A stretch of DNA of 63,848 bases, the filler included, from Globobulimina sp. (taxonomy: Eukaryota), in NCBI GenBank assembly GCA_003354225.1. It is 28 parts of 28 records of this genome, joined end to end, with 100 filler letters (N's around TTAATTAATTAA, not from the genome) between each part and the next. Parts side by side here need not be neighbours in the genome. Positions count along the whole stretch, not along the records: positions 1 to 2,186 come from PIVH01008342.1; 27 more parts are not named here. One strand, given 5' to 3'. This document shows positions 1-45,587 of the stretch, piece by piece (position 1 is the first letter of the stretch; each line of letters begins with the position of its first letter). The notes below the pieces were generated by a model. The model did no database searches, was not told the origin of the DNA, and was given only the letters and a program-made list of their open reading frames with translations. Made by a program: the position numbers and the translations under genes.

Positions 1-21
1 AATTATTAGCTAGATGTATCT

Positions 22-961
22 TCATCGCCCGCTTCCAATCACTCGATACAAAATCTTTCTTTCCCCTGGTAAAAAACCGCGTTTCATTTGGTCAGACTGT
101 AAAGATTGCTATATTTTAATTAACACAAGTAATAAATAGTTATTTTACCTGAGGAACACCGATACTGCTGTCAACCCAAAGATAGAAATAATTACAACCC
201 TCTCGTCGACTGTCTTCTTGAGCCATGTCATATGCATTTTTCACTAAATTATGTTTAGATCGAGTAGCTCCAAACAACTCGCTATTAAGAGTTTTCAAGT
301 AGTATTGATCACGCGATAATGAGAATAAGAAGAGCTGGCTGCAGTTTCGACGTATTGTTATCTAAACAATAAATACCCAACTGTTATAATGCACTGTAAT
401 TTCATATTACATACCCATACTCTCGATCTTGAAGACGTCATATTTTGGGTTAGGATAAACAAAACTATTCTTTGATGGTGACATCGTGCAATGGCACACT
501 CAAGTATCAATTCATTATCTACATAATTACCGACATTTGCGTCATCCAGCTGAAAATGAAAACTGAAGTATAAACGAGCGAGACACAATATATGTAAGCA
601 AATACCAGTATGACACAAACACCATCTTTTGAGTCGCCAATCATAGCCGGGGATAGCATTTCATTGGTTAACTCTTTTGATAGAATACATAATTCATCTC
701 CGTACTGCTTCTTTAATTGAACATGGACCTCTTGTAATGTATTATATATAATAATAATTTTGCGCAGTGGGTCATTTGGATAAATGTCGCTCCACTGTCG
801 AAGTAACTGTAAAAGTGGACTTTAATTCGTGTCTGACAAGTAATAAAACATTATACCGAGAAGGCGAAATGGGTTTTGCCACTTTGGCTTATTCCTGCCA
901 AGATGCTGGCATAACAAAGAGGTGGATACCAATTAATTTCTTCAAACTTTTCTATTGACAT
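22..961 (-). CDS. FtsK/A32-like genome-packaging ATPase (Polinton type), 5 exons, about 242-246 aa
   Basis: Manual splice: exons 961-857, 806-606, 549-415, 361-149, 96(or 108)-22. GT-AG introns 856-807, 605-550, 414-362, 148-97(or 109). Yields Walker A ILAGISQSGKT, Walker B VCVIL|LDD, then CHHQRIVLFILTQN, TIRRNCSQLFLFSLSRD, YLWVD and GFLPGERKILY, the Polinton ATPase motif series, with no internal stops. Confidence 0.88.
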
Positions 962-963
962 TA

Positions 964-1524
964 TTACTGTATACCATCACAATATAATAAGCGATCACTA
1001 CGAAGAAACTTAAAGTGTTTTTTAATATAATGAAACACTTTATAATCGTTACCAAACTTGTCATCTGTATTAAACTCAGAAGTTATTTCAGTCAGTGTTC
1101 TATTTTGACATAGTAACAGAGCGACAATAATCGAATATCCTCCACATACACACGAATTTGAGTTCTGGTAGACCAAATAATTACTTTCGACTGAAGTTGT
1201 GGATGTTAATCGAAAGACGGACTTCAATATTTGATTATCTTTTGTGCTGAAAAATTGAAATCCCAGAGAATCAAATACAGTACAACGAAAGTTATTGTTT
1301 TCTCTCTTTTTCCAAAATAGCAATATGAAATGACCAACGATAGGTTTACCAACTGGTTTATCACCTGATTCTGTCAAAAGTACCACAGTAATATTTATAA
1401 GTTTATTTTTATCGAATTTGTATTTTACAAAATCAAGTAAATCAGATATTTCAACACATCCAAGAAAATATTGATTTGTACAAGAATTTTTAGTTAGAAT
1501 AAAATCAATTTCGCTGAAATCCAT
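964..1524 (-). CDS. Adenain-like (clan CE) cysteine maturation protease
   Basis: 186-aa uninterrupted ORF with GHFIL (His), VFDSLG (Asp) and YQNSNSCVCGGY (Gln oxyanion, catalytic Cys), as in Polinton PRO. Confidence 0.9.
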   Translation of the reverse strand: MDFSEIDFILTKNSCTNQYFLGCVEISDLLDFVKYKFDKNKLINITVVLLTESGDKPVGKPIVGHFILLFWKKRENNNFRCTVFDSLGFQFFSTKDNQILKSVFRLTSTTSVESNYLVYQNSNSCVCGGYSIIVALLLCQNRTLTEITSEFNTDDKFGNDYKVFHYIKKHFKFLRSDRLLYCDGIQ

Positions 1525-1527
1525 TTC

Positions 1528-2186
1528 CTATCCATTGACCGAATAATCCAACTCGGGAGTGAAGTTACTGTTGAAGTAGACAGTCGAATTATATTTCTAA
1601 AGAGAACACAGATAAGTATAATTTCGCAACATTATGAAATATGTCTGACATCATTCTCTGCAACTTACAAATATCCAAATGAATGTTGTTGGCAAAGCAA
1701 GGGCTTGCTTCAATTGAACATGAGCTCGCAAGCTACCACTCATGGGTGCTGAATGTACTTGCTTTGGTTGATTAACATAGACACGATGCAGTGAGAATGC
1801 AATGATACCATAACCATGGAACAAATCGTCCATTGAAATACCATTGGACCTATCTGAATTCCACATACCACAAGCTTTTTGAAGCTCAAAAAATTCTTGA
1901 TATGCCTTTCGAGCTGTAGCATCTGGATTAAGCCCAAGTTCTGATGGAAATGCCCTTCCCTCGGTCAGTAGTTTAGCATTTCCAACCATACTTAGATCGA
2001 ATCTGAAATTATTAAATTGTAATCAACAAACTATAGTTACTCACAATTAAAAATTGCATACTCGAATGGAGACAATGCCAAATTTCCATTATAGCGATCA
2101 GTCGATACGATCATCAAATATACCGCATGCGGTAATACGGTTTGTATAGGTAATAAATTCAGATCGACCACTTGAGTCCCTGGTAG
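1528..2186 (-). CDS. Polinton-type double jelly-roll major capsid protein, C-terminal part, 2 introns (5' truncated)
   Basis: Exons 2186-2041 (VLPHAVYLMIVSTDRYNGNLALSPFEYAIFN), 2002-1669 (NGISMDDLFHGYGIIAFSL...GSLRAHVQLKQAL) and 1596-1528 (KYNSTVYFNSNFTPELDYSVNG*). Introns 2040-2003 (GTAACT..TTTCAG, less certain) and 1668-1597 (GTAAGT..TTTAG, contains an in-frame TGA). Confidence 0.8.
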
Positions 2187-4296: not shown

Positions 4297-4608
4297 TACA
4301 TAACGTACGTTATAAATCATTGTGAGTGTAACCGAAAAATTGCTTTTTTTTCTTGAGCATCAAAGCATGTCTGATTATTATCCACGAGAACAGCATGAAT
4401 ATTTAGATAATAAAACATTTTGTATAGTAAATGGTTTTATTCGCGAAGCACAGTATTCCATAATACATCGCNNNNNNNNNNNNNNNNNNNNNNNNNNNNN
4501 NNNNNNNNNNNNNNNTTAATTAATTAANNNNNNNNNNNNNNNNNNNNNNNNNNNNNNNNNNNNNNNNNNNNGCACGAAAACTTTATTAAAACGGAAACAA
4601 AACCAACA

Positions 4609-6753
4609 GTGAGAATGGATGAGTTATATGATGGATTCGACGACATGAATGATGAAAACACAATAAATACAATGAATACAACAATCAGCACATCATTTAC
4701 TATGAACGATTCAATTCGTCCAATGACATCAAATAAATCTGCTGGATATTCATCACAAACAAAAAAAAAATCAAATTTGAATATTTATCAACAAGACAAA
4801 AAAACACATAATGTCGCATTGAATAATAATAATAAAAACAGTTTATCTGAAAAGGCTGAAACAATGGAAAAAAATGTAAATAAATTCTTGCGAGAAAGTA
4901 TATCTTATTCATCCTGCGGCGATTATAACAATGCATTGGATTTGGCATTAAAATGTCGGAAAAAAGAGCATGAAATAATTATATTTCTCGAGAAGCACAA
5001 TTTAGAGGATAATATAAATCAAGATTTGCGATTTTCTGTATTATTTAATTTGGGATATATTTATGAATTAAAACAAATGTATTCGGAATCGTTAAATATT
5101 TATAACGAGATAGTTTGCAGCAATCTCAACAAGACCAAAATAAGAATTAATATGGGAAATATTTATTATCAACAAAACAAATATGATTTGGCCATAAAAA
5201 TGTATCGAATGAGTTTGGATGAAATTGGCGATTTAAATTATAAATTAAAAATAAATATTCTGCGAAATATCGGCAATTCGTTTGTTAAATTAGGTCAATT
5301 TGTGGAAGCAATCCAATCTTTTGAAAATATCATCGATATTAATATGGATGCGGGCGGCGTTGGTGATATTGACGCTATTTTTAATTTGATTATATCTTAT
5401 TACATATTAGGTGACATAGAGAAAATAAAAAAGGGATTTCTTCAATTATTAAATTGTTATGATAATGTACAAAATAATAATAATAATAATATAGATGATG
5501 AATATGCAATATATATTGTAAAAAAACAATGTGTTTTAAACAATTATATAAAACAAAGTGCCCAATTAATTGCTAAAGCGATCGAGAATAATAATGATGA
5601 ATACAGTGGTTATGATTGGTTGCTCCATCAAATAAAAGACAAAAACATTAATATAAATATCAAGAATATTATCTTACAGTTAAAGAGTATCGCATATTTT
5701 AAAGATAATAAGTTTTCTTTAGGAATTAATAATTGTATTAACAATAATAATAATAATAATTTATCGTTTATTAAATTTTTATGTAATGACTTTGCGGAAT
5801 CTGATAAATTTGCATCGTCAGCAATAATAAGTGATCGATATAATGCATTGTCGTTAGTGAATCGCGCAAATTGTTTGTATGTATTTGGCGAATATGAATC
5901 AGCAAAAGAAATGTATTTAGAAGCAATTGGCGTGGAGGCGGATTGCATGGAAGCAATCTATAATTTAGGTTTAATTTGTAAGAAAATTGGTAATTATAAT
6001 GATGCATTACAAGCGTTTAAGAAATTAAATAAAAGTTTGTATCATAACCCACAAATCTTGTATCAAATAAGTAATTTGTACGAGTTATTGAATGAGTATG
6101 AAACAGCTATTAAATGGTACAAAATATTACATTCTGTAATACCAAATGACTCGAATGTGTTAATAAAATTAGCAAATTTATATAAAATACATTTAAAAGA
6201 TGAGAATATTGTCTTTCATAATTATTTAGATTCCTATAAATTATATAAATGTAATATAAATATTATATCATGGCTAGGCATTTGGTATATTAATAATTCC
6301 TTATTTGAAAATGCGATAAATATATTTGACAATGCATTTGTAATACAACCAAAACAAATAAAATGGAAATTTATGATTGCTTCTTGTTATCGCAGAATGA
6401 GAAATTTCCAAAAATCAATCCAAATCTATCAATCCATACTGAATGATAATGATTCTGATCATAACACCGACATAAATATTACACAAAAATGTTTGCAATA
6501 TTTATGTACAATCATGAAACAAATAAATCATCCGCAATTAAATAAATATCAAATCAAATTGCAGCAAATACAAGAGATACAACATCAAGACATGGAACAG
6601 CAAGCGGTGGAACAAGGGGCGGAACAACCAATGCAACACCAACAAGAACGAGAACAAGAACAACCAATCGGAAATCAACCTGATAATGATGACGACATTG
6701 ACAATAACAATTGGAATGATATTCATATTGACGATGAGTTACTACCATCTTAA
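4609..6753 (+). CDS. IFT88: Intraflagellar transport protein 88 (TPR protein), probably 5' partial
   Basis: TPR arrays with IFT88 signatures INMGNIY..AIKMYRMSLD, DRYNALSLVNRANC, EAIGVEADCMEAIYNLGL and KWKFMIASCYRR. Confidence 0.92.
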   Translation: MRMDELYDGFDDMNDENTINTMNTTISTSFTMNDSIRPMTSNKSAGYSSQTKKKSNLNIYQQDKKTHNVALNNNNKNSLSEKAETMEKNVNKFLRESISYSSCGDYNNALDLALKCRKKEHEIIIFLEKHNLEDNINQDLRFSVLFNLGYIYELKQMYSESLNIYNEIVCSNLNKTKIRINMGNIYYQQNKYDLAIKMYRMSLDEIGDLNYKLKINILRNIGNSFVKLGQFVEAIQSFENIIDINMDAGGVGDIDAIFNLIISYYILGDIEKIKKGFLQLLNCYDNVQNNNNNNIDDEYAIYIVKKQCVLNNYIKQSAQLIAKAIENNNDEYSGYDWLLHQIKDKNININIKNIILQLKSIAYFKDNKFSLGINNCINNNNNNNLSFIKFLCNDFAESDKFASSAIISDRYNALSLVNRANCLYVFGEYESAKEMYLEAIGVEADCMEAIYNLGLICKKIGNYNDALQAFKKLNKSLYHNPQILYQISNLYELLNEYETAIKWYKILHSVIPNDSNVLIKLANLYKIHLKDENIVFHNYLDSYKLYKCNINIISWLGIWYINNSLFENAINIFDNAFVIQPKQIKWKFMIASCYRRMRNFQKSIQIYQSILNDNDSDHNTDINITQKCLQYLCTIMKQINHPQLNKYQIKLQQIQEIQHQDMEQQAVEQGAEQPMQHQQEREQEQPIGNQPDNDDDIDNNNWNDIHIDDELLPS

Positions 6754-9467: not shown

Positions 9468-11117
9468 ATGGAAATAGATTTTGACATTGGTGATTTATCA
9501 GACGATGAAGACGAATTTTTCGTGATTACAAAACCACCGCACTTCGATGTAATGGATGATGAAGACGACGATTTTAAAATACTTCAAGATTACAACAACT
9601 ATGCAGTGGATGAAGCTGATTTTCATACCATTGACGATGACAAAAAACAGCCACAATTAAAGCAAAAAAAACAAACCATGGGCAGGTCATCAGTACCACC
9701 ATCGGCAATGTTAAGTATTGGAGCGAGCAGCGATGAAAAAGCCGTCATAGAAACACCAAAAATGAAGTGTTCAGCCTCCGAATTAGCACCGACGAAAAGC
9801 ACATCCGTATCATCGCGTACATCATTAACCAGATGCAATTCTGTACCAATACGCAAGATGAAATATTACGAAATCAATGGTCTGACCATTTGGAGCAATC
9901 ATAAACGCGATTTAGAAGAATTATATCTGAAAGAAGCCATTTCAAAACAACATAAAAACGCTAAACGAAAATCCAAAAAGCAAATTAAATTTAAAGACAT
10001 GGATATGGAAGAAAGTGATCTTAAATGCACAGCAAATTCCGACGAAAAGGATGATAATTTACGGAGATATTTAATTGGCGAAATTATAGAAACGGAGGAA
10101 ACCTATGTCCGCGGACTAAATACATTGTTGAATGAATTCATCATTCCTCTGTTCGATAAGAAATTAATTAAACACAAATATAAAGACATTCTCACGTGCA
10201 ATATCCCGGAAATTATCAAATTCCATACTTCTTTTTTACAGCATTTAATCAATACCAGTTCACAGCGATCGTTTGAGACTGTTTTTTATGAGTGATGTAC
10301 TAACGAATTTGTGGAAATGTACACAAAATATATTCTGCAATATGACAATATGTTGGATATTTATGCCAAATACAACAAATCAAAAAAGTTGCAGAAATTT
10401 TTTAAAAACAAACGCAAAGAAAAGAAGCCGTTGACCAATCATTTAATTTTACCCATTCAGAGAGTGACTCGCTATTTGATATTATTGGAGGAGCTGAAAA
10501 AGAAAACGGTGGAAACGCATCGGAGCTATACGGAGTTGGAGAGCGTGTTGGAGAAAATTGAAGTGACCGTCAATATGATCAATGAGAGACAGCGCGAAAT
10601 TGAAAATATGTCCCAATGCTTGCAAGTGCAAGAAACTATGAATGGATTGAACCGGAACATTGTGGAGCGACATAGGAAGTTATTGGCACAGTTTGTGTTT
10701 AGAAAGAAGGAGAATCAGAGAGGGAGACAGTTCTTTTTGTTTAATGATTTGTTGATTATTACCAATTTGAAATTAAAAGTAAAGAGTGTGATTGAAATAC
10801 GCACGATTGAGATAAAAAAAATAAAAGAGAGGAATGCGTTTCATTTATTTTCGATTAATCATGAAGCCATTTATGAGACGGATGATGGGAAAAGCGAGGA
10901 TCTACGAGATTTGATTCGGTTGCTTGAGGATAATCGGCAGAGAATACATAAGGAATCCTTGAAGTCTGTGGGTCTGTGTCCAGCCGATATCGCGGCTTTG
11001 TTGACTGGAAAATATTCGTTCTCGCAGGGGAACTTAGCTCGGAAACAGATTGATGTCCAAAAAAAAAGAGCATCATTGCCGTTAAAGGTTTCGTCGAGTA
11101 ATAATGATATTGTTTAA
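9468..11117 (+). CDS. Dbl-family RhoGEF (DH-PH) with one in-frame TGA at 10293-10295
   Basis: RRYLIGEIIETEETYV, LILPIQRVTRYLILLEEL and PH-type RQFFLFNDLLI. The two listed ORFs share one frame: FYE*CTNEFVEMY. Confidence 0.85.
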
Positions 11118-13711: not shown

Positions 13712-15896
13712 ATTATTTACTAAAATTAAGGAAATAAAGCAAATAAATTTAAGAGCGGAAATGGCAAGAATTGAAAAGGCTCATAACAAATGGATAAACA
13801 ATCCAAGAAGAAAATTTCACCAACTATATGATACCATGAAAAATCTTAAACGAGGAGTTAGAGAAAATGTGACAATTATAAATGATCAAAAACAACCTAT
13901 AATAGGAAATATGGAAATAAAAAAACATTTGGCCGAATTTTGGGAAAGTATATTTACACTGGGAATATGGCCTGAAGCTAATGACCAGATGAAAAGAGTA
14001 GGACTAACTGATATCATCAATGGACCAGACAAATTAGATCTAAATAACGATATAACAAACATAGAAATGATAGCAGCTATGAAAAAATTGAAAAATAATA
14101 CGTCAGCAGGTACAACTAATATTCCACCAGAATTTATAAAAAACTGGCCCCAAAGTATGATCGATACCGTGAGAACATTATTTAATAAATGGTATAATAC
14201 AGGATATTTCCCGGATATAGGGAAAACCCAAGAAGTCACATTATTACATAAAAAGGGCTCAAAAAGTAACATAAAAAATTATAGAACTTTATGCCTAGGA
14301 TGTAATTTATGTAAACTATACCTTCTTATATTAACAAAAAGAATAGAAACAATAACTGAAAAGAAAAATATATTAGGATATATACAACATGGATTTAGAG
14401 CAAATAAAAGGATAGAAGACTGTATTCTAACAATAAATCATACCATAATGAAAGCCAGGAAAGGCCGCCGATCTAAAGCTACAGTGGCACTTTTAGATAT
14501 ACAAAAAGCATATGACCGAGTATGGAGAGCTGGTTTATGGAAAAAACTACGAGACCTTGGATTCCCAGAAAAATTAATCGAAGCCATAAAAAGTAGCTAC
14601 CAGAATCCTGGAGCCACTATTACCTTCCAAAACTTAACAACAGATAAACTTGATATGCCAGTAGGATTAAGACAAGGATGCACAATGTCCCCCATATTAT
14701 GGGCATTATATATATCAGATTTGGGGAGAGAAATCGAACAATGCAACTTAGGTATAGAAATTGGAACCGATGATAACAAGAAAATTATATCAGGACTATT
14801 TTTTGCAGATGATATGTTGCTATTTGCCAAAAATGAACAAAATATGGAGAGACTACTAACAATAGTAGGTAACTACGCTCAAAGATGGAAAATCGAATTT
14901 TCAGGATCAAAAAGCTTAATTATACCATTAAAAAGAAACATAGATCCGGATAAAAAATGGGCATTAGGATATAAATATGTAAAAGAAAAAGAAAAATCGA
15001 CAATATATATCAAGGAGGAATCGGAATCTAAATACCTGGGAATAACGCTAAGCAAACACAAGTTAGACTTAACAACCCAACACAGAGTTAGATTAACAGA
15101 AGCGACAAAAAAGGAAACATATCGATGCTATAAACCAGCAATGGCAACAGCACGATCAATACTATATGGTAGTAAAATATGGACAACATATGTTGTACCA
15201 AAAATACTACATGGCATTGCTGCATTAATATTTTCAGCTAATACATTTAAAGGAATAGAAGTTCAACAAAGAGAATATATCAGAAATATATCACGATTAC
15301 CACGCCATACTAATAATATGGTTCTATATGGAGAAACCAATATTATACCAATGATGAAAGAAGCTGAAAAACGAACAATAAATTACTTGTCACATATAAG
15401 CAAATTGAACAATGACAACATTGTAAAATTAGCTTTATTAGAACAAATGGAAATATATAGAAATAATAATACAACTAAAACGTGGCTGAAACATGCCTAC
15501 AGTATATGTGATAAATACAACATTGATCACAGAAATATCCCAAAACCTGATATCATCAAAACTATTATTCACAATCACTGGATTGCTGAATATAAAAATA
15601 ATCTAGCACAAGCTGGATCTTTGATATTATATCAAGAAAAAACAATTCCAAAAATAAACTATAAATTAAATTTACAAACAGGAGGAGACTATTGGCTAAA
15701 GGCAAAGGCCGGAAGCTTATTAATAAATGGAAGATCGAATAGACCATGTTCTAGATGCGATCTGAATACACTTGAAACTATAAATCATTTAATATGGGAA
15801 TGTCCAGAAAATATTTTTATCGATAATTATGAAGATAATATCAAAATTATATGGAATCATCTACCAGAGAATATTAATGGACATAATAAACCTAAT
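13712..15896 (+). mobile_element. Non-LTR retrotransposon (LINE) ORF2 fragment: reverse transcriptase plus C-terminal CCHC zinc finger
   Basis: NYRTLCL, QHGFR, LDIQKAYDRV, GLRQGCTMSP, FFADD, KYLG, and CSRC..ETINHLIWEC. Frame is open across the contig; strongly A-rich sense strand. Confidence 0.95.
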
Positions 15897-32163: not shown

Positions 32164-34171
32164 TTACAAATCATCTTCATCCAAATCATCGTCAAAGTCG
32201 TCAAGACCGATATTCTTTCTGAGTATCATCTTACGAACTATCCGTTGATGACCACCGCCTTCAGTCACTGTATAACCTAACGCAAGTATGTTGTTTTTAA
32301 AGGTACCTTTGCTAGGAGTGTTACTGGCAAGACCTTGGTCATTGTGCCATAAGTCAAATGCATTATATAAGTCTTTAAAGGTTATATAAACATTCTCTGC
32401 TGTACTGACATCGCAACAGTCTCTTATGAATCCTGTAACTGAGTTAGCCTCATCTAACCATAACTTCTCAGCTGTAGTACAGTCTACTGGTTTGTCAAAG
32501 CAGGCTCTAACTCTAAGACGCCGCAAGGCATCAAGCGCTTTGTTCAATACACCGGGTAAGTCGTGTTTCATTATACGCGGTGCAAGTGAACGGTCAACTT
32601 CATGAACTTCAAATTGTCTATCAAATGGAATGACATTTGCACGTCGTCTTGTACCGTTTGAAATGTCCTTTGCTTTAGGGAAGTAATTGGTCAATAAAAC
32701 AGGACTTGCACAGGACACAAAGTTGAAGGCTTTTTTACCTTTGGGATTAGCTTGAAGTAACTTTCGTTCTGATACCTTTTTTAATAATGAGTCAGGAAGC
32801 ACTGTGTGTGTATCTAAATCATCGTCTAGTATCATTAGTTTACCAGGTAATTCTGCAATAGCGTGATTGTTTCGCTTGGTATCTAAATCATGGATACCTG
32901 TTGCAAGAACAGATTGAGGTCCCATTAAGCCTGACATTACCTCAAGTAACATCGATTTACCGTTTGAACCAAAGCCTTTCATCATCCACCAAGAAGCAAT
33001 GTTTTTATTAGGTTGAATAGTATAACCCATAAATTCTTCAAAGTGTCTGACCATACCTAAAGTGTCTTCTGCATTTTCAAATATCTGCTCAATTGCATCA
33101 TCCCATAGAGGACACTCTGCAAACTCATCATATTCAACTTCAAGGCAGTAGGTGCAGTAAGACTTGTATGTGTGAGGGCGTAGTTTGAATCTTCCGTCAT
33201 TACTTAATACGATTTCCGTATTTTGACAGTTGATAATGGCTTTAGGTGGTTTACTAAATCCAAATACATCGTCATGAACCGCACGAGTGTGTTTCAATAT
33301 TTGTAAACACTGGTTGACAACAACTGTTGTGGTTATCGCAATGCCTATCTTATCGCGTATTTTTTGCCACAATGTTATTATTATACCTCCTATCCATTCC
33401 TGTCTGGTAGGTTCCCAGAACTCGCCATTGTACATCCAGAAGTTATCATCTATATTATAAATGAGATATCGTCCTTTTTCAAACTTCTCATTCAATACAT
33501 AACCTGCTAATATCTCCCCTATGTCCTTCAGAGCACTGTCGTCTATATCCTTCATGATAACCTTAAGCTCGCTCTTAGTATAGCCAGTGGTCTTCTGAAT
33601 GATTTTAAGGCAACGCATTTTAACAATAGCGTCAGAACGCATGGCTGCGTAAAGAGCTTCGCGTAAATCGTCATCAAGTGGACGGTCACACAAGTCTTCT
33701 GCTAATGAAACTGCATCAACAACAGACAGCAAACTTGCAAGCTGAGCAGCTGCTGCCTCTGAGTCAAGAATGATTTGTTCATCTTCATTGTCGAAGTCAC
33801 CGAAGTCCAATTTGGCTTCATATGACTTAACATTAACGCCACATTGTTTTGCGTGGTGAAGTAATGTTCTATGGGTTGCTAAACCTGAGTTTTCAGTATT
33901 AAGACTTTCCCAACGATAACGAATCTCAGGACCGTCATTGACGTATGCAATATCAGATGTAGACCAATCAAGAAATTCTTCAATTCCTTTACCGTCTGTC
34001 GCATAATGAACTGAAGTTAATACTTCAAACCATTTGTCATTGTTATCAAAGTTTGTTATAGGCATTTGTGCAAGTATTTCTTCAATTTCTGCACAGCTCA
34101 TTAAACCTGATGAAACATCTGTAGACGCAGCAGGCCTCTCAATAATCCTTAATAAGGACATAGGACAATGA
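32164..34171 (-). CDS. Phage/plasmid P4/D5-family primase-helicase (PriCT-2 + D5_N + SF3 helicase), 5' truncated
   Basis: WFEVLTSVH..FLDWS..RWESL (PriCT-2), INCQN, CPLWD, Walker A GFGSNGKS, ILDDD and RRRANVIPF. Intronless, with prokaryotic signals nearby. Confidence 0.9.
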
Positions 34172-43417: not shown

Positions 43418-45587
43418 TCAGTGTTGCATATATTGTTTATATACGGCGGGAGTTCGTGCATCGAATGCAATATCAAGCGGGTCCGATGGATGTGTGCCAT
43501 ATATAATATTAAAGGGTGAAAACGACGTCATTCGGTTGACTGTCGTATTATATTTGTACTGGATCATTGGGATAAAGACATCCCAGTCATGTTCGGCAAT
43601 AAAATCTAAGCTTAAATCATATGCTATTAAGCTAAGTCTCTCTTTTATCCATCTATGTAATCTTTCTATCTGTCCATTAGCCTCCGGGTGATAATCTGTT
43701 GTATATTTAACTTTTATTTTGTGTGTTTTTAGGAAGTGTTTGTATATGGCACTGATAAATTGTGGGCCATTATCACTTAATATAGCTGCTGGTGGACCAA
43801 ATGTAAACATCCATTTATCCACACATTTGATTATATCGATGGCATTAATGGATTTTATGCATTGTAGCATACAATATCGGGAAAATTTGTCTATTATGGT
43901 GACAATATATTTATTATCATTATCAGTTTGCGGCAAAGGTCCAACTATGTCAATGGAAATTTGTTGGAATGGACGCGTTGCTGAATATAAGTTAAGTGGT
44001 CCTTGCTTGCCTTTTTTTACTTTTTTGACAGCTTGGCAACCTTTACATAGTTTGCAGAATGATTTTATATGATTTCGTATTTTTGGCCACCAGTATCTAT
44101 CGGATATTATTTGAAACATTTTATTTTGGCCATTATGTGTAATATCATGGCTATTATGCAAAATGGAGCGGCGTAGGAATGGCGGGATAACTATTTTATG
44201 TTTATTATTATGGATAATATGTAACAGGTCGTTTTTTATTGAAAAGCGACCCAATAAAAAGTATCGCTTATAATCATCGGATAAACCTTTTAATAAATCT
44301 GTATTATTAGTTTCTAAATGGTTTATTATGGGATATAGGAATGTATCGGATCTCTGTTTATATTTAATTAATTTATGGGTAATGTCTTTATTATAATATC
44401 GATCCAATATAACTGAAGGAATTGGATCGATTGAATCAATATTAAAAAATGGATTGGATGGTTTATATGATAGGATCTCATTATTTAATTGCTTTGTATT
44501 TTGCAAAATGCGTTCATAATTTTGCCGTTGCTGAGGATTTAAGAAAGACGGAATTGATTGAAATGGTATCAATTTCGCTTTATTTATACTTGGTTGTAAA
44601 TTATGCGGTTGTTTGGCAATCAATCGCTTAGATCGCCGTCGTGTACTTTTAACTATTTTATTATAAGAATCTGCTTGTTTTTGTGATATTTTGTGTGTAT
44701 TTTTATCATTCTTATTCTTGTTATTTGTGTTTACGGCAAAAGTTTTTGTTTCTGATAATTTAACTTTACTAAACACACTTTTACTTTTCTGTCCTTCCGG
44801 ACCATGGGCTCGTCGCCCAACACAGTCTAAAGAGTATATTTCCACCTCCGTGAGGGGTAAGTCATCATTAGAGTCAACGTCAACATCCATAGTATGACAA
44901 TCAGTATCAATATGCAAATTAACAGCTGCCATCGGGCCATTTAAATGCATTGAATTATTACAATCATAATCGACGGATTTTGAACGATTATATGTAGGAT
45001 TGCGGCGATTTATAGTTTCGTGACGAATTTTAAATTCGTTATCTTGCAAATCACTCAAAGCGTTTTTATGTATTTGATGCCGTGAATTATGCATGAAATC
45101 TAAATCAATTTTATTCATTAATGTATGTTGTGGTCGATTCAAGCGATTTAATTCATTTTCAGTGGATCTCATGTTATTTTTATCAGTGCCTGCAATTATT
45201 TGCGAGCATAAATGATTTGTATACATTGCAAATAAATCAAAGGTGTTTATAGTATGTTCGTTATCAATTTTATGCGTCTTATTATCGTCGAACAAGCCAT
45301 TACGTGACAAGTAATCGGCCACAATATTGGCATAGCCGGGGATGTATTTCGCAGTGAAATCAAATTCCTGCAAACGAACGCTCCATCGGTATAACTTACC
45401 TGTTTTGAACCCGCGCGCCGCCTTAAACAGCTCCTGCAAATTCTTGTGATCGGTATGTAATGTAAAATGCGTTCCGATTAACAAATGACGCCATTTTTCT
45501 ATAAAATATATAGAAGCAAAGAGTTCCTGCTCAGAAACGTGCCATCGAGTCTGTGGTCCGGAAAATGTCTTTGATGAAAAGGCAATT
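43418..45587 (-). mobile_element. Ty3/Gypsy LTR retrotransposon pol fragment: RNase H, long linker, H2C2 zinc finger, integrase
   Basis: EQELFA..FTLHTDHKNL, ANIVADYLSR, H..H..YWWP..C..CQ, IDIVGPLP, SDNGPQF and HPEANGQIER; RH-then-IN domain order. Confidence 0.93.

Follow-up and report, generated by a model that had tools for sequence, protein, structure and literature searches.

The first 2186 nt of the window (the whole stretch of DNA analysed, 63,848 nt) are one complete small contig. With a probability of roughly 0.8, it carries part of a virion-morphogenesis module from a Maverick/Polinton-type element (Preplasmiviricota), with six predicted short GT-AG introns interrupting the genes for capsid and ATPase. 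Gene identities, an exon-intron structure at the level of the DNA, colinearity with intronless homologues and the pattern of constraint are all observed. Three co-oriented genes, as the initial annotation had proposed, run head to tail along the minus strand: a fragment of the major capsid protein (MCP) gene, a protease gene and a packaging ATPase gene. The count of six introns with GT-AG ends in that annotation holds; coordinates were corrected, and the intron sizes that it gave as 38-72 nt are in fact 50-72 nt. The corrected features, in the direction of the genes, are as follows.

2062-2186, minus strand: MCP exon a, starting at the contig end; matches positions 280-312 of capsid profile A2 (E = 1.1e-6)
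2003-2061, minus strand: predicted MCP intron 1, 59 nt, GTATGC...TTTCAG, phase 2
1669-2002, minus strand: MCP exon b, second jelly-roll region; aligns to profile A2 positions 303-415 (54.7 bits, E = 4.6e-17)
1597-1668, minus strand: predicted MCP intron 2, 72 nt, GTAAGT...CTTTAG, phase 0; contains a stop codon in frame
1528-1596, minus strand: MCP exon c, the last 22 codons and a TAG stop (1530-1528); aligns with the C terminus of P0007
964-1524, minus strand: putative adenain-like cysteine protease, 186 aa and a stop (966-964), without an intron, 3 nt past the MCP stop
857-961, minus strand: ATPase exon 1, 35 codons with Walker A (G-x4-GKT); its ATG lies 2 nt past the protease stop
807-856, minus strand: predicted ATPase intron 1, 50 nt, GTATAA...TTACAG, phase 0; profile alignment gap-free over the junction
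606-806, minus strand: ATPase exon 2, 67 codons, placed by profile alignment
550-605, minus strand: predicted ATPase intron 2, 56 nt, GTATTT...TTTCAG, phase 0, placed by profile alignment
415-549, minus strand: ATPase exon 3, 45 codons, placed by profile alignment
362-414, minus strand: predicted ATPase intron 3, 53 nt, GTATGT...GTTTAG, phase 0; absent from P0027
149-361, minus strand: ATPase exon 4, 71 codons; relatives P0026 (76% identical) and P0027 (69% identical)
97-148, minus strand: predicted ATPase intron 4, 52 nt, GTAAAA...TTACAG, phase 0; profile alignment goes on into exon 5
22-96, minus strand: ATPase exon 5, 24 codons and a TGA stop (24-22); alignment with the C-terminal motif in the profile of Maverick ATPases

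Both ends of the contig fall within genes or right beside them, and the element is partial: pPolB, integrase, penton, TIR, TSD and host flank were all absent from the 2186 nt, and a penton (minor capsid) gene would be expected past the contig end. The remaining 27 contigs of the window are unrelated and merely linked by N/TTAATTAATTAA spacers, and they therefore provide no genomic context for this one. No Maverick genes were found in these 27 contigs; the sole rve domain in the window is part of an LTR-retroelement ORF on another contig. The GC content of the contig is 0.35, and that of the 28 contigs spans 0.27 to 0.46. No Rfam RNA families were found in the window. Stop-codon reassignment, prompted by an in-frame TGA in a RhoGEF gene, was considered and rejected as a general feature.

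The capsid gene is a predicted double-jelly-roll MCP, an assignment supported by the profile match to the family of P0007 and by the modelled fold of that protein. The contig carries only the C-terminal 175 codons, in three exons, of some 435 residues, with the N-terminal ~260-280 codons missing past the contig end; the class assignment applies to the C-terminal ~175 residues. Only two ORFs of the contig scored below E 0.1 against the capsid profile, and these were the ORFs of exons b and a (4.6e-17 and 1.1e-6). The joined fragment is colinear with residues 265-431 of the 432-residue P0007, and the last capsid beta-strand region would exist only after the predicted splicing. A phmmer search with exon b returned 11 relatives. 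The structure model of P0007 (pLDDT 67, pTM 0.69) had 121 double-jelly-roll matches in BFVD at E<=0.001, the best of them to a bracovirus-borne protein (E = 3.9e-19), and 253 matches in the PDB, including PBCV-1 Vp54 (4.8e-15), Sputnik and the mavirus MCP (8.3e-12). The Pfam domain PF21738 (DJR-like_dom) was matched by 2/9 capsid family members. Members of the family also occur in real Mavericks, as in locus L037, which encodes pPolB, an ATPase, an rve-chromo integrase and the MCP, followed directly by a C5-like protease.

The ATPase gene is complete, with five exons encoding 242 aa, and its identification from sequence as an A32/IVa2-type (FtsK-HerA) packaging ATPase, as expected of a Maverick/Polinton, is supported. 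Residues 17-235 of the predicted spliced product align colinearly (E = 2.1e-11) with a profile derived from 35 distinct Maverick ATPase ORFs, covering 17-209 of its 212 positions. The score of 31.8 bits compares with a maximum of 8.9 bits among 1000 shuffles, and no single exon reached E<0.1. The spliced protein also scored 39.3 bits against profile A4, a family in which 12/13 members match Adeno_IVa2 and 11/13 match Pox_A32. Walker B (a hydrophobic run followed by DD) is formed only across the junction of intron 2. Both predicted spliced products, MCP fragment and ATPase, are alignable over their whole length with families from genuine Mavericks.

The middle gene is probably an adenain/Ulp1-like (clan CE) cysteine protease, with moderate support; this assignment is weaker than those of the capsid and ATPase and draws on the order of motifs, on look-alikes from a language model and on one profile match of 12 bits. 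In that match, the Maverick protease profile aligned to residues 116-167 (E = 5.3e-6). Two relatives, each of 186 aa, are 77% and 76% identical, and H65, D85, Q120 and C127 are invariant in 3/3 sequences, giving the His-Asp-Gln-Cys order with adenain spacing, including the Gln-to-Cys distance of adenain. Look-alikes in a language-model atlas (score 0.96) belong to Preplasmiviricota, with Peptidase_C5/C48 on 14-57% of members. Searches of Pfam and PHROGs with the protease gave no match, and an AlphaFold model from the three-sequence alignment reached a pLDDT of only 35, too low for use. With this weaker middle member, the profile matches bear out the capsid-protease-ATPase module that had been proposed.

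All six predicted introns begin with GTA and end with YAG, and they are AT-rich, with a GC content of 0.27 versus 0.36 in exons. The length is divisible by 3 in only one of the six, and this one (72 nt) carries the in-frame stop. Removal leaves no stop over 175 (MCP), 186 (protease) and 242 (ATPase) codons, whereas the ATPase span contains 14 stops if left unspliced; the frames are as clean as initially described, although that description had not recognized the capsid as a C-terminal fragment. GT-AG ends and a restored open frame, the hallmarks of spliceosomal (U2-type) introns, were found in 6/6. The size class and signals resemble those of candidate introns in neighbouring cellular contigs, in line with the overlap in size that had been noted before. 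Single exon or ORF pieces (8 in Pfam and 7 in PHROGs) gave nothing at or above curated cut-offs (best E 0.043).

Individual junctions were compared with relatives. Colinearity with intronless homologues was found for MCP introns 1 and 2 (P0007) and for ATPase intron 3 (P0027), and colinearity by profile only for ATPase introns 1, 2 and 4. At MCP intron 1, the spacing across the junction equals that of five relatives without this intron (P0007, P0006, P0008, P0010 and P0013), and the relative P0022 reads in frame through the corresponding stretch with unrelated residues. The boundary of MCP intron 2 is reached by 10/13 aligned relatives, and all 10 have Val (GTN) there. This Val is no proof of a donor, because intronless P0007 has it too; it is the tails that carry the argument. 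Past the boundary, 9 of the 10 continue into unrelated residues and P0007 goes on with a homologue of exon c, so that the boundary recurs in nine relatives at 27-79% identity, their introns being read from the ends of their ORFs. P0027 lacks ATPase intron 3 and is colinear without gaps across the predicted junction. The donor of ATPase intron 4 recurs in 2/2 relatives, with the homology of P0026 and P0027 ending there, followed by Val and unrelated residues.

Variant copies were compared across sequencing runs. Run X1 contains 60 contig pieces of this stretch, 21 at >=99%, 20 at 95-99% and 17 at 90-95% identity. Contigs of two other studies, one from a run labelled marine metagenome, include pieces 95-100% identical: a 232-nt piece in X2 with 0 differences and a 268-nt piece in X3 with 6. 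No joints were seen in the run contigs placed on this stretch, a result that carries no information on expression. For X1, the 40 best-supported of 99 differences were analysed; among these 40, 15 substitutions fell in introns (342 nt in total) and 25 in coding sequence (1809 nt; Fisher P = 7e-4), and 16 of the 25 coding changes were synonymous, versus 21% expected (P = 5e-6). All indels listed among the X1 variants (7/7) lie within introns: MCP intron 1 has a 1-nt insertion and 6 substitutions among the variants listed, and ATPase intron 2 of one variant contig has six 1-nt deletions and 7 substitutions among the differences listed. Intronless relatives, conserved positions and variation among copies together support the view that the interruptions are spliceosomal-type introns, as predicted from sequence.

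Relatives are rare. The MCP-protease adjacency is also present in P0024, at ~32% identity; the protein collections contain relatives only as unnamed pieces of exon size that match nothing in Pfam. Three IMG/VR scans, queried with the protease, with P0007 and with MCP exon b, yielded no relatives, and in sequence searches of the PDB the protease, P0007, A2 and A4 had matches at chance level only.

Several observations would suit a Maverick/adintovirus-like virus that is free rather than integrated, belongs to the sequenced organism or an associate, has its genes spliced in the nucleus like those of adenoviruses, and is not endogenous. No host flank is present on the contig, two other studies, including the run labelled marine metagenome, contain pieces 95-100% identical, and gene spacing of 2-3 nt is virus-like. 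However, the many diverged variants among the 60 pieces in X1 are more typical of a multicopy genomic family, the introns resemble in size and signals the candidate introns of neighbouring cellular contigs, and none of the three IMG/VR scans found a relative; we consider such a virus unlikely, though deserving of attention. It is also improbable that the contig derives from an organism other than that of the rest of the assembly (prey, symbiont or contaminant), in which case the introns would reflect the splicing of that organism; the spread in GC from 0.27 to 0.46 would allow this, but the GC (0.35) and intron style of the contig lie within the range of the neighbouring AT-rich contigs. This source would be compatible with our main reading of a Maverick/Polinton-type module.

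Introns and purifying selection are also what one expects of cellular genes, and the three genes could have been domesticated by a host from a Maverick, gaining introns after co-option. Against this, three different virion genes are still 2-3 nt apart in viral order, the adjacency of MCP and protease is kept in P0024, one run contains many diverged copies, and the relatives, rare and patchy, are unnamed fragments from metagenomes and do not form an orthologous family of genes. We judge domestication to be highly improbable. Least credible is a decaying pseudogene copy, with the six interruptions as random insertions or frameshifts. There is a precedent, as vertebrate Maverick loci are mostly degraded and gene-prediction tools report insertions in them as 'introns', according to passages of PMC8097293. 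Here, however, all six interruptions are GT-AG and within 50-72 nt, and the frames left by their removal line up gap-free with homologues over the junctions. Distant relatives share boundaries, most exon changes are synonymous, and none of the listed indels falls in an exon.

On the reading as a Maverick/Polinton-type module, the element is presumably integrated in a host genome, expressed in the nucleus and actually spliced. Host machinery would transcribe the module in the nucleus, and full-length capsid and ATPase could form only once the spliceosome had taken out the introns. The lineage appears diverse and still constrained, with intron positions that would be partly old, because one is common to relatives at ~30% protein identity, and partly variable, because another is missing in a 69%-identical relative. 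A broader proposal, which we put forward tentatively and at slightly less than even odds, is that of a long-lived and still active Maverick/Polinton lineage whose virion genes contain conserved spliceosomal introns and could not be expressed without the splicing machinery of the host. The age of one position would exceed ~70% protein divergence, while gain or loss between close relatives would account for others; the introns might even help, for example by giving host-like transcripts against defences on intronless foreign DNA, and the lineage would be invisible to ORF-based discovery.

Current ideas about how eukaryotic dsDNA viruses arose give Mavericks/Polintons a central place. According to passages in PMC10120064 and PMC9356565, they are usually mined with prokaryote-style ORF callers and viral insertions are assumed to be intronless. 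Such surveys would overlook capsid and packaging genes whose exons have 22-111 codons, or recover them in fragments; the earlier expectation that the lineage would largely escape them fits both these statements and the unnamed, exon-sized relatives without Pfam hits. The element may serve as a system for how a virus-like element gains and keeps introns, for whether introns aid escape from host silencing, and for how spliced nuclear transcripts can serve three genes separated by 2-3 nt.

We compared the contig with the Mavericks/Polintons of animals (vertebrates and nematodes; metagenome loci L001-L080, sought with the single protein P0018). Like the contig, these loci, L037 among them, combine a ~435-aa double-jelly-roll MCP and, directly after it, an adenain-like protease with an ATPase of the A32/IVa2 type, and their genes are very tightly spaced. 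The core genes of Mavericks are described as intronless in passages of PMC8097293 and bioRxiv 10.1101/2022.07.12.499685, as the initial annotation had stated. In the three loci that were mapped (L037 and L065 in full) the core genes are uninterrupted ORFs, and full-length tblastn matches show an uninterrupted MCP in 80/80 loci, whereas the contig has six introns in 2/3 genes. The ATPase lies downstream of the protease here and beside pPolB in animal Mavericks.

Adenoviruses have a homologous hexon-type capsid, the adenain protease and the IVa2 ATPase, and use the host spliceosome in the nucleus. Their splicing joins leaders to largely uninterrupted coding bodies, whereas the coding sequences of the contig are themselves split, into 3 and 5 exons. 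In green algae, endogenous giant viruses place viral genes with spliceosomal introns in the nuclear genome, a context in which a 2026 preprint on punuivirus reportedly also stands; these viruses belong to a different phylum and a different size class. Dinoflagellate Maverick-Polinton-like proviruses are described in passages of PMC11957031 as carrying introners, and resemble the best reading of the contig as an integrated Maverick-like element with spliceosomal-type introns, integration being presumed here. The provirus introns are copies of transposable introner families and mostly gains after integration (same passages). An introner origin was rejected for the six introns of the contig, which are mutually unrelated, with 14/15 pairs scoring within the range of 200 shuffles and one position kept to ~30% identity. 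The remaining pair, ATPase introns 1 and 4, scored just above the shuffle range, and 14-mers shared with other parts of the window numbered 0 for five introns and 2 for MCP intron 1.

Contig 1 (1-2186) carries capsid and ATPase genes whose coding sequences are interrupted. Its long open frames all lie on the minus strand, and exon boundaries were set from splice signals and homologues. The resulting exon model confirmed the arrangement described in the initial annotation, namely three co-oriented minus-strand genes whose frames become open when the introns are removed.

Gene and exon model of contig 1
2186-2062, 2002-1669 and 1596-1531, minus strand: exons a-c of the MCP fragment, 175 codons, stop at 1530-1528; the gene start lies beyond the contig end
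1524-967, minus strand: protease, an uninterrupted 186-codon ORF with its ATG 3 nt past the capsid stop
961-857, 806-606, 549-415, 361-149 and 96-25, minus strand: exons 1-5 of the ATPase, 242 codons, ATG 2 nt past the protease stop

The six segments between these exons measure 59, 72, 50, 56, 53 and 52 nt, and all six start with GTA and end with YAG after a T-rich run. The annotated size range of 38-72 nt was too generous at its lower bound, as lengths run from 50 to 72 nt; the remaining description held. GC content is 0.27 in the introns versus 0.36 in the exons. Only the 72-nt segment has a length divisible by three, and it contains a stop in frame. Without splicing, the ATPase span has 14 stops; the joined frame has none.

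Because Pfam and PHROGs gave no match for the single exons or the protease of contig 1, the genes were identified through relatives. Exhaustive phmmer searching matched 11 proteins to capsid exon b (E<=1e-3), only one of which, P0007 (432 aa), was full length. This protein has eight further relatives, and Pfam DJR-like_dom matches two of the nine family members. Its structure model (pLDDT 67, pTM 0.69) resembles double-jelly-roll capsids: BFVD gave 121 matches with E<=0.001, among them adomavirus LO7, capsids of virophages and giant viruses, and a bracovirus-borne protein (3.9e-19), and PDB gave 253, among them PBCV-1 Vp54, Sputnik and the mavirus MCP. Against the ORFs of contig 1, the P0007-family profile recovered exactly the two capsid exon ORFs (E 4.6e-17 and 1.1e-6; next best E 0.13). 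Look-alike clusters of the capsid family come mostly from Nematoda and Arthropoda, which is a lead only.

A scan of metagenome contigs with another relative, P0018, returned at least 505 relatives among at least 593 candidate stretches; 80 were kept. One locus, L037, encodes pPolB (DNA_pol_B_2, E 1.7e-18), an ATPase, an rve-chromo integrase and an MCP, with a weakly C5-like protease directly after the MCP. The capsid family is resident in real Mavericks. L037 and a second metagenome locus, L065, are near-complete intronless Mavericks, in the order pPolB, ATPase, two small ORFs, rve-chromo integrase, two ORFs, MCP, protease.

At the DNA level, the reading of the six interruptions as spliceosomal-type introns has four lines of support; intronless relatives, recurring boundaries and variation among copies all favored the intron reading originally proposed. 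The joined capsid fragment aligned to residues 265-431 of intronless P0007 with no gap at either junction. P0027, whose identity to ATPase exon 4 is 69%, passes directly from the last residues of exon 3 to exon 4 at exactly the predicted point and thus lacks ATPase intron 3. Among 13 relatives aligned to exon b, ten reach the exon end, and all ten have Val (GTN) there; nine of these (27-79% identical) continue with unrelated short tails, and P0007 continues with the exon c homologue. Homology to both relatives of ATPase exon 4 likewise ends at the intron-4 donor, where Val then follows. Five more distant relatives lack MCP intron 1, and in the relative P0022 the reading frame continues through the intron, encoding unrelated residues there. 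The recurring boundaries, together with the absence of MCP intron 1 in relatives, imply that intron positions are partly old and partly variable. Past the conserved exon end, the ORF of the exon b relative P0024 (about 32% identical) resembles the N-terminus of the window protease; from this protein, capsid-to-protease adjacency seems conserved in distant relatives that bear introns.

Variant copies point the same way. In sequencing run X1 the contig 1 stretch is represented by 60 contig pieces at 90-100% identity. Of 99 substitutions, 40 were listed, and these were denser in introns (15 in 342 bases) than in coding sequence (25 in 1809 bases; Fisher P 7e-4). Synonymous changes made up 16 of the 25 coding substitutions, versus 21% expected (P 5e-6), and among the indels listed all seven lay within introns. 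Two other studies, one of them labelled marine metagenome, likewise have contigs with near-identical pieces. By eye, and as candidates only, gaps between cellular exons on neighbouring contigs contain GT-AG segments of similar size. An introner family was considered and rejected, 14 of 15 intron pairs being alike only to shuffle level.

The capsid, protease and ATPase identities first proposed were also supported by profiles. Residues 17-235 of the spliced ATPase aligned across all four junctions (E 2.1e-11) to a Maverick ATPase profile built from 35 distinct ATPase ORFs of the P0018-scan loci, scoring 31.8 bits versus 8.9 for the best of 1000 shuffles; no single ATPase exon matched this profile at E<0.1. 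Among 13 Maverick ATPases, Adeno_IVa2 matched 12 and Pox_A32 matched 11. Walker A is encoded in ATPase exon 1, and Walker B arises only across the exon 2/3 junction. The protease has two relatives, each of 186 aa (77% and 76% identical), and His65, Asp85, Gln120 and Cys127 are invariant among the three in clan-CE order, with a spacing that we take to be like that of adenain. It matched a Maverick protease profile around the Gln...Cys-Gly motif (12 bits, E 5.3e-6), and its language-model look-alikes are Preplasmiviricota Peptidase_C5/C48 clusters (score 0.96). The protease is the weakest of the three assignments because its structure model was unusable.

At the level of sequence, contig 1 is therefore supported as a Maverick/Polinton morphogenesis module whose spliceosomal-type introns are conserved. 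Such a module would most likely be transcribed in the nucleus, where the spliceosome would remove the six introns; without splicing there would be no full capsid protein and no ATPase with a Walker B motif. In other Preplasmiviricota, proteins of these families assemble the capsid, mature it by proteolysis and package the genome at the expense of ATP, and by analogy the capsid, maturation protease and packaging ATPase would then act likewise.

The starting premise of intronless Polinton ORFs matches published descriptions of the core genes in vertebrates and nematodes. According to PMC8097293, vertebrate Mavericks have 'eight conserved and intronless ORFs', and 'No introns were observed', which that paper notes agrees with Kapitonov and Jurka (2006). 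For nematode Mavericks, the wording is 'all of these intronless genes', with introns in cargo genes only (bioRxiv 10.1101/2022.07.12.499685), and PMC10120064 and PMC9356565 defend calling genes from ORFs alone on the ground that viral insertions lack introns. The closest precedent, introners within Maverick-Polinton-like proviruses of dinoflagellates, concerns a different kind of intron (PMC11957031). A full-text literature search, with founding papers and supplements outside its scope, returned no earlier account of Maverick/Polinton capsid, protease or ATPase genes bearing spliceosomal introns.

The window (63,848 bases) is not a single locus: its 28 contigs, each 2182-2186 nt long, are strung together with N/TTAATTAATTAA/N linkers, and because this chain is artificial, neighbouring stretches are not genomic neighbours. 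Individual contigs have GC contents of 0.27 to 0.46 (0.35 in contig 1). Searching the window found no Maverick genes on the other contigs, and the 2186 nt of contig 1 contain no host flank, TIR, polymerase, integrase or penton gene. Neighbouring contigs are AT-rich, with short introns, retroelements and a TTC21/IFT139-like TPR protein, content that suggests a ciliated or flagellated eukaryote as source. The TPR protein (4573-6750, plus strand) spans 726 codons; its ARM domain is of the TTC21 (IFT139) type, and it has long runs of Asn. On the contig at 31988-34171, an uninterrupted 668-codon ORF (32167-34170, minus strand) with PriCT_2, D5_N and DUF5906 domains is a D5-like primase-helicase of the type found in giant viruses, virophages and Polinton-like viruses; this contig, for which no connection to contig 1 emerged, may be a second virus-derived piece of the same assembly. 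A lone in-frame TGA at 10293-10295 cuts a RhoGEF domain, with Pfam positions 2-75 before it and 84-180 after. Stop-codon reassignment was rejected as a general feature of the window, and a pseudogene, variant or assembly error is likelier. Two further contigs are filled by retroelement ORFs (13713-15896, plus strand, and 43421-45586, minus strand), one with an RVT_1 reverse transcriptase and the other with an RNaseH-integrase (rve) pol fragment of an LTR retroelement.
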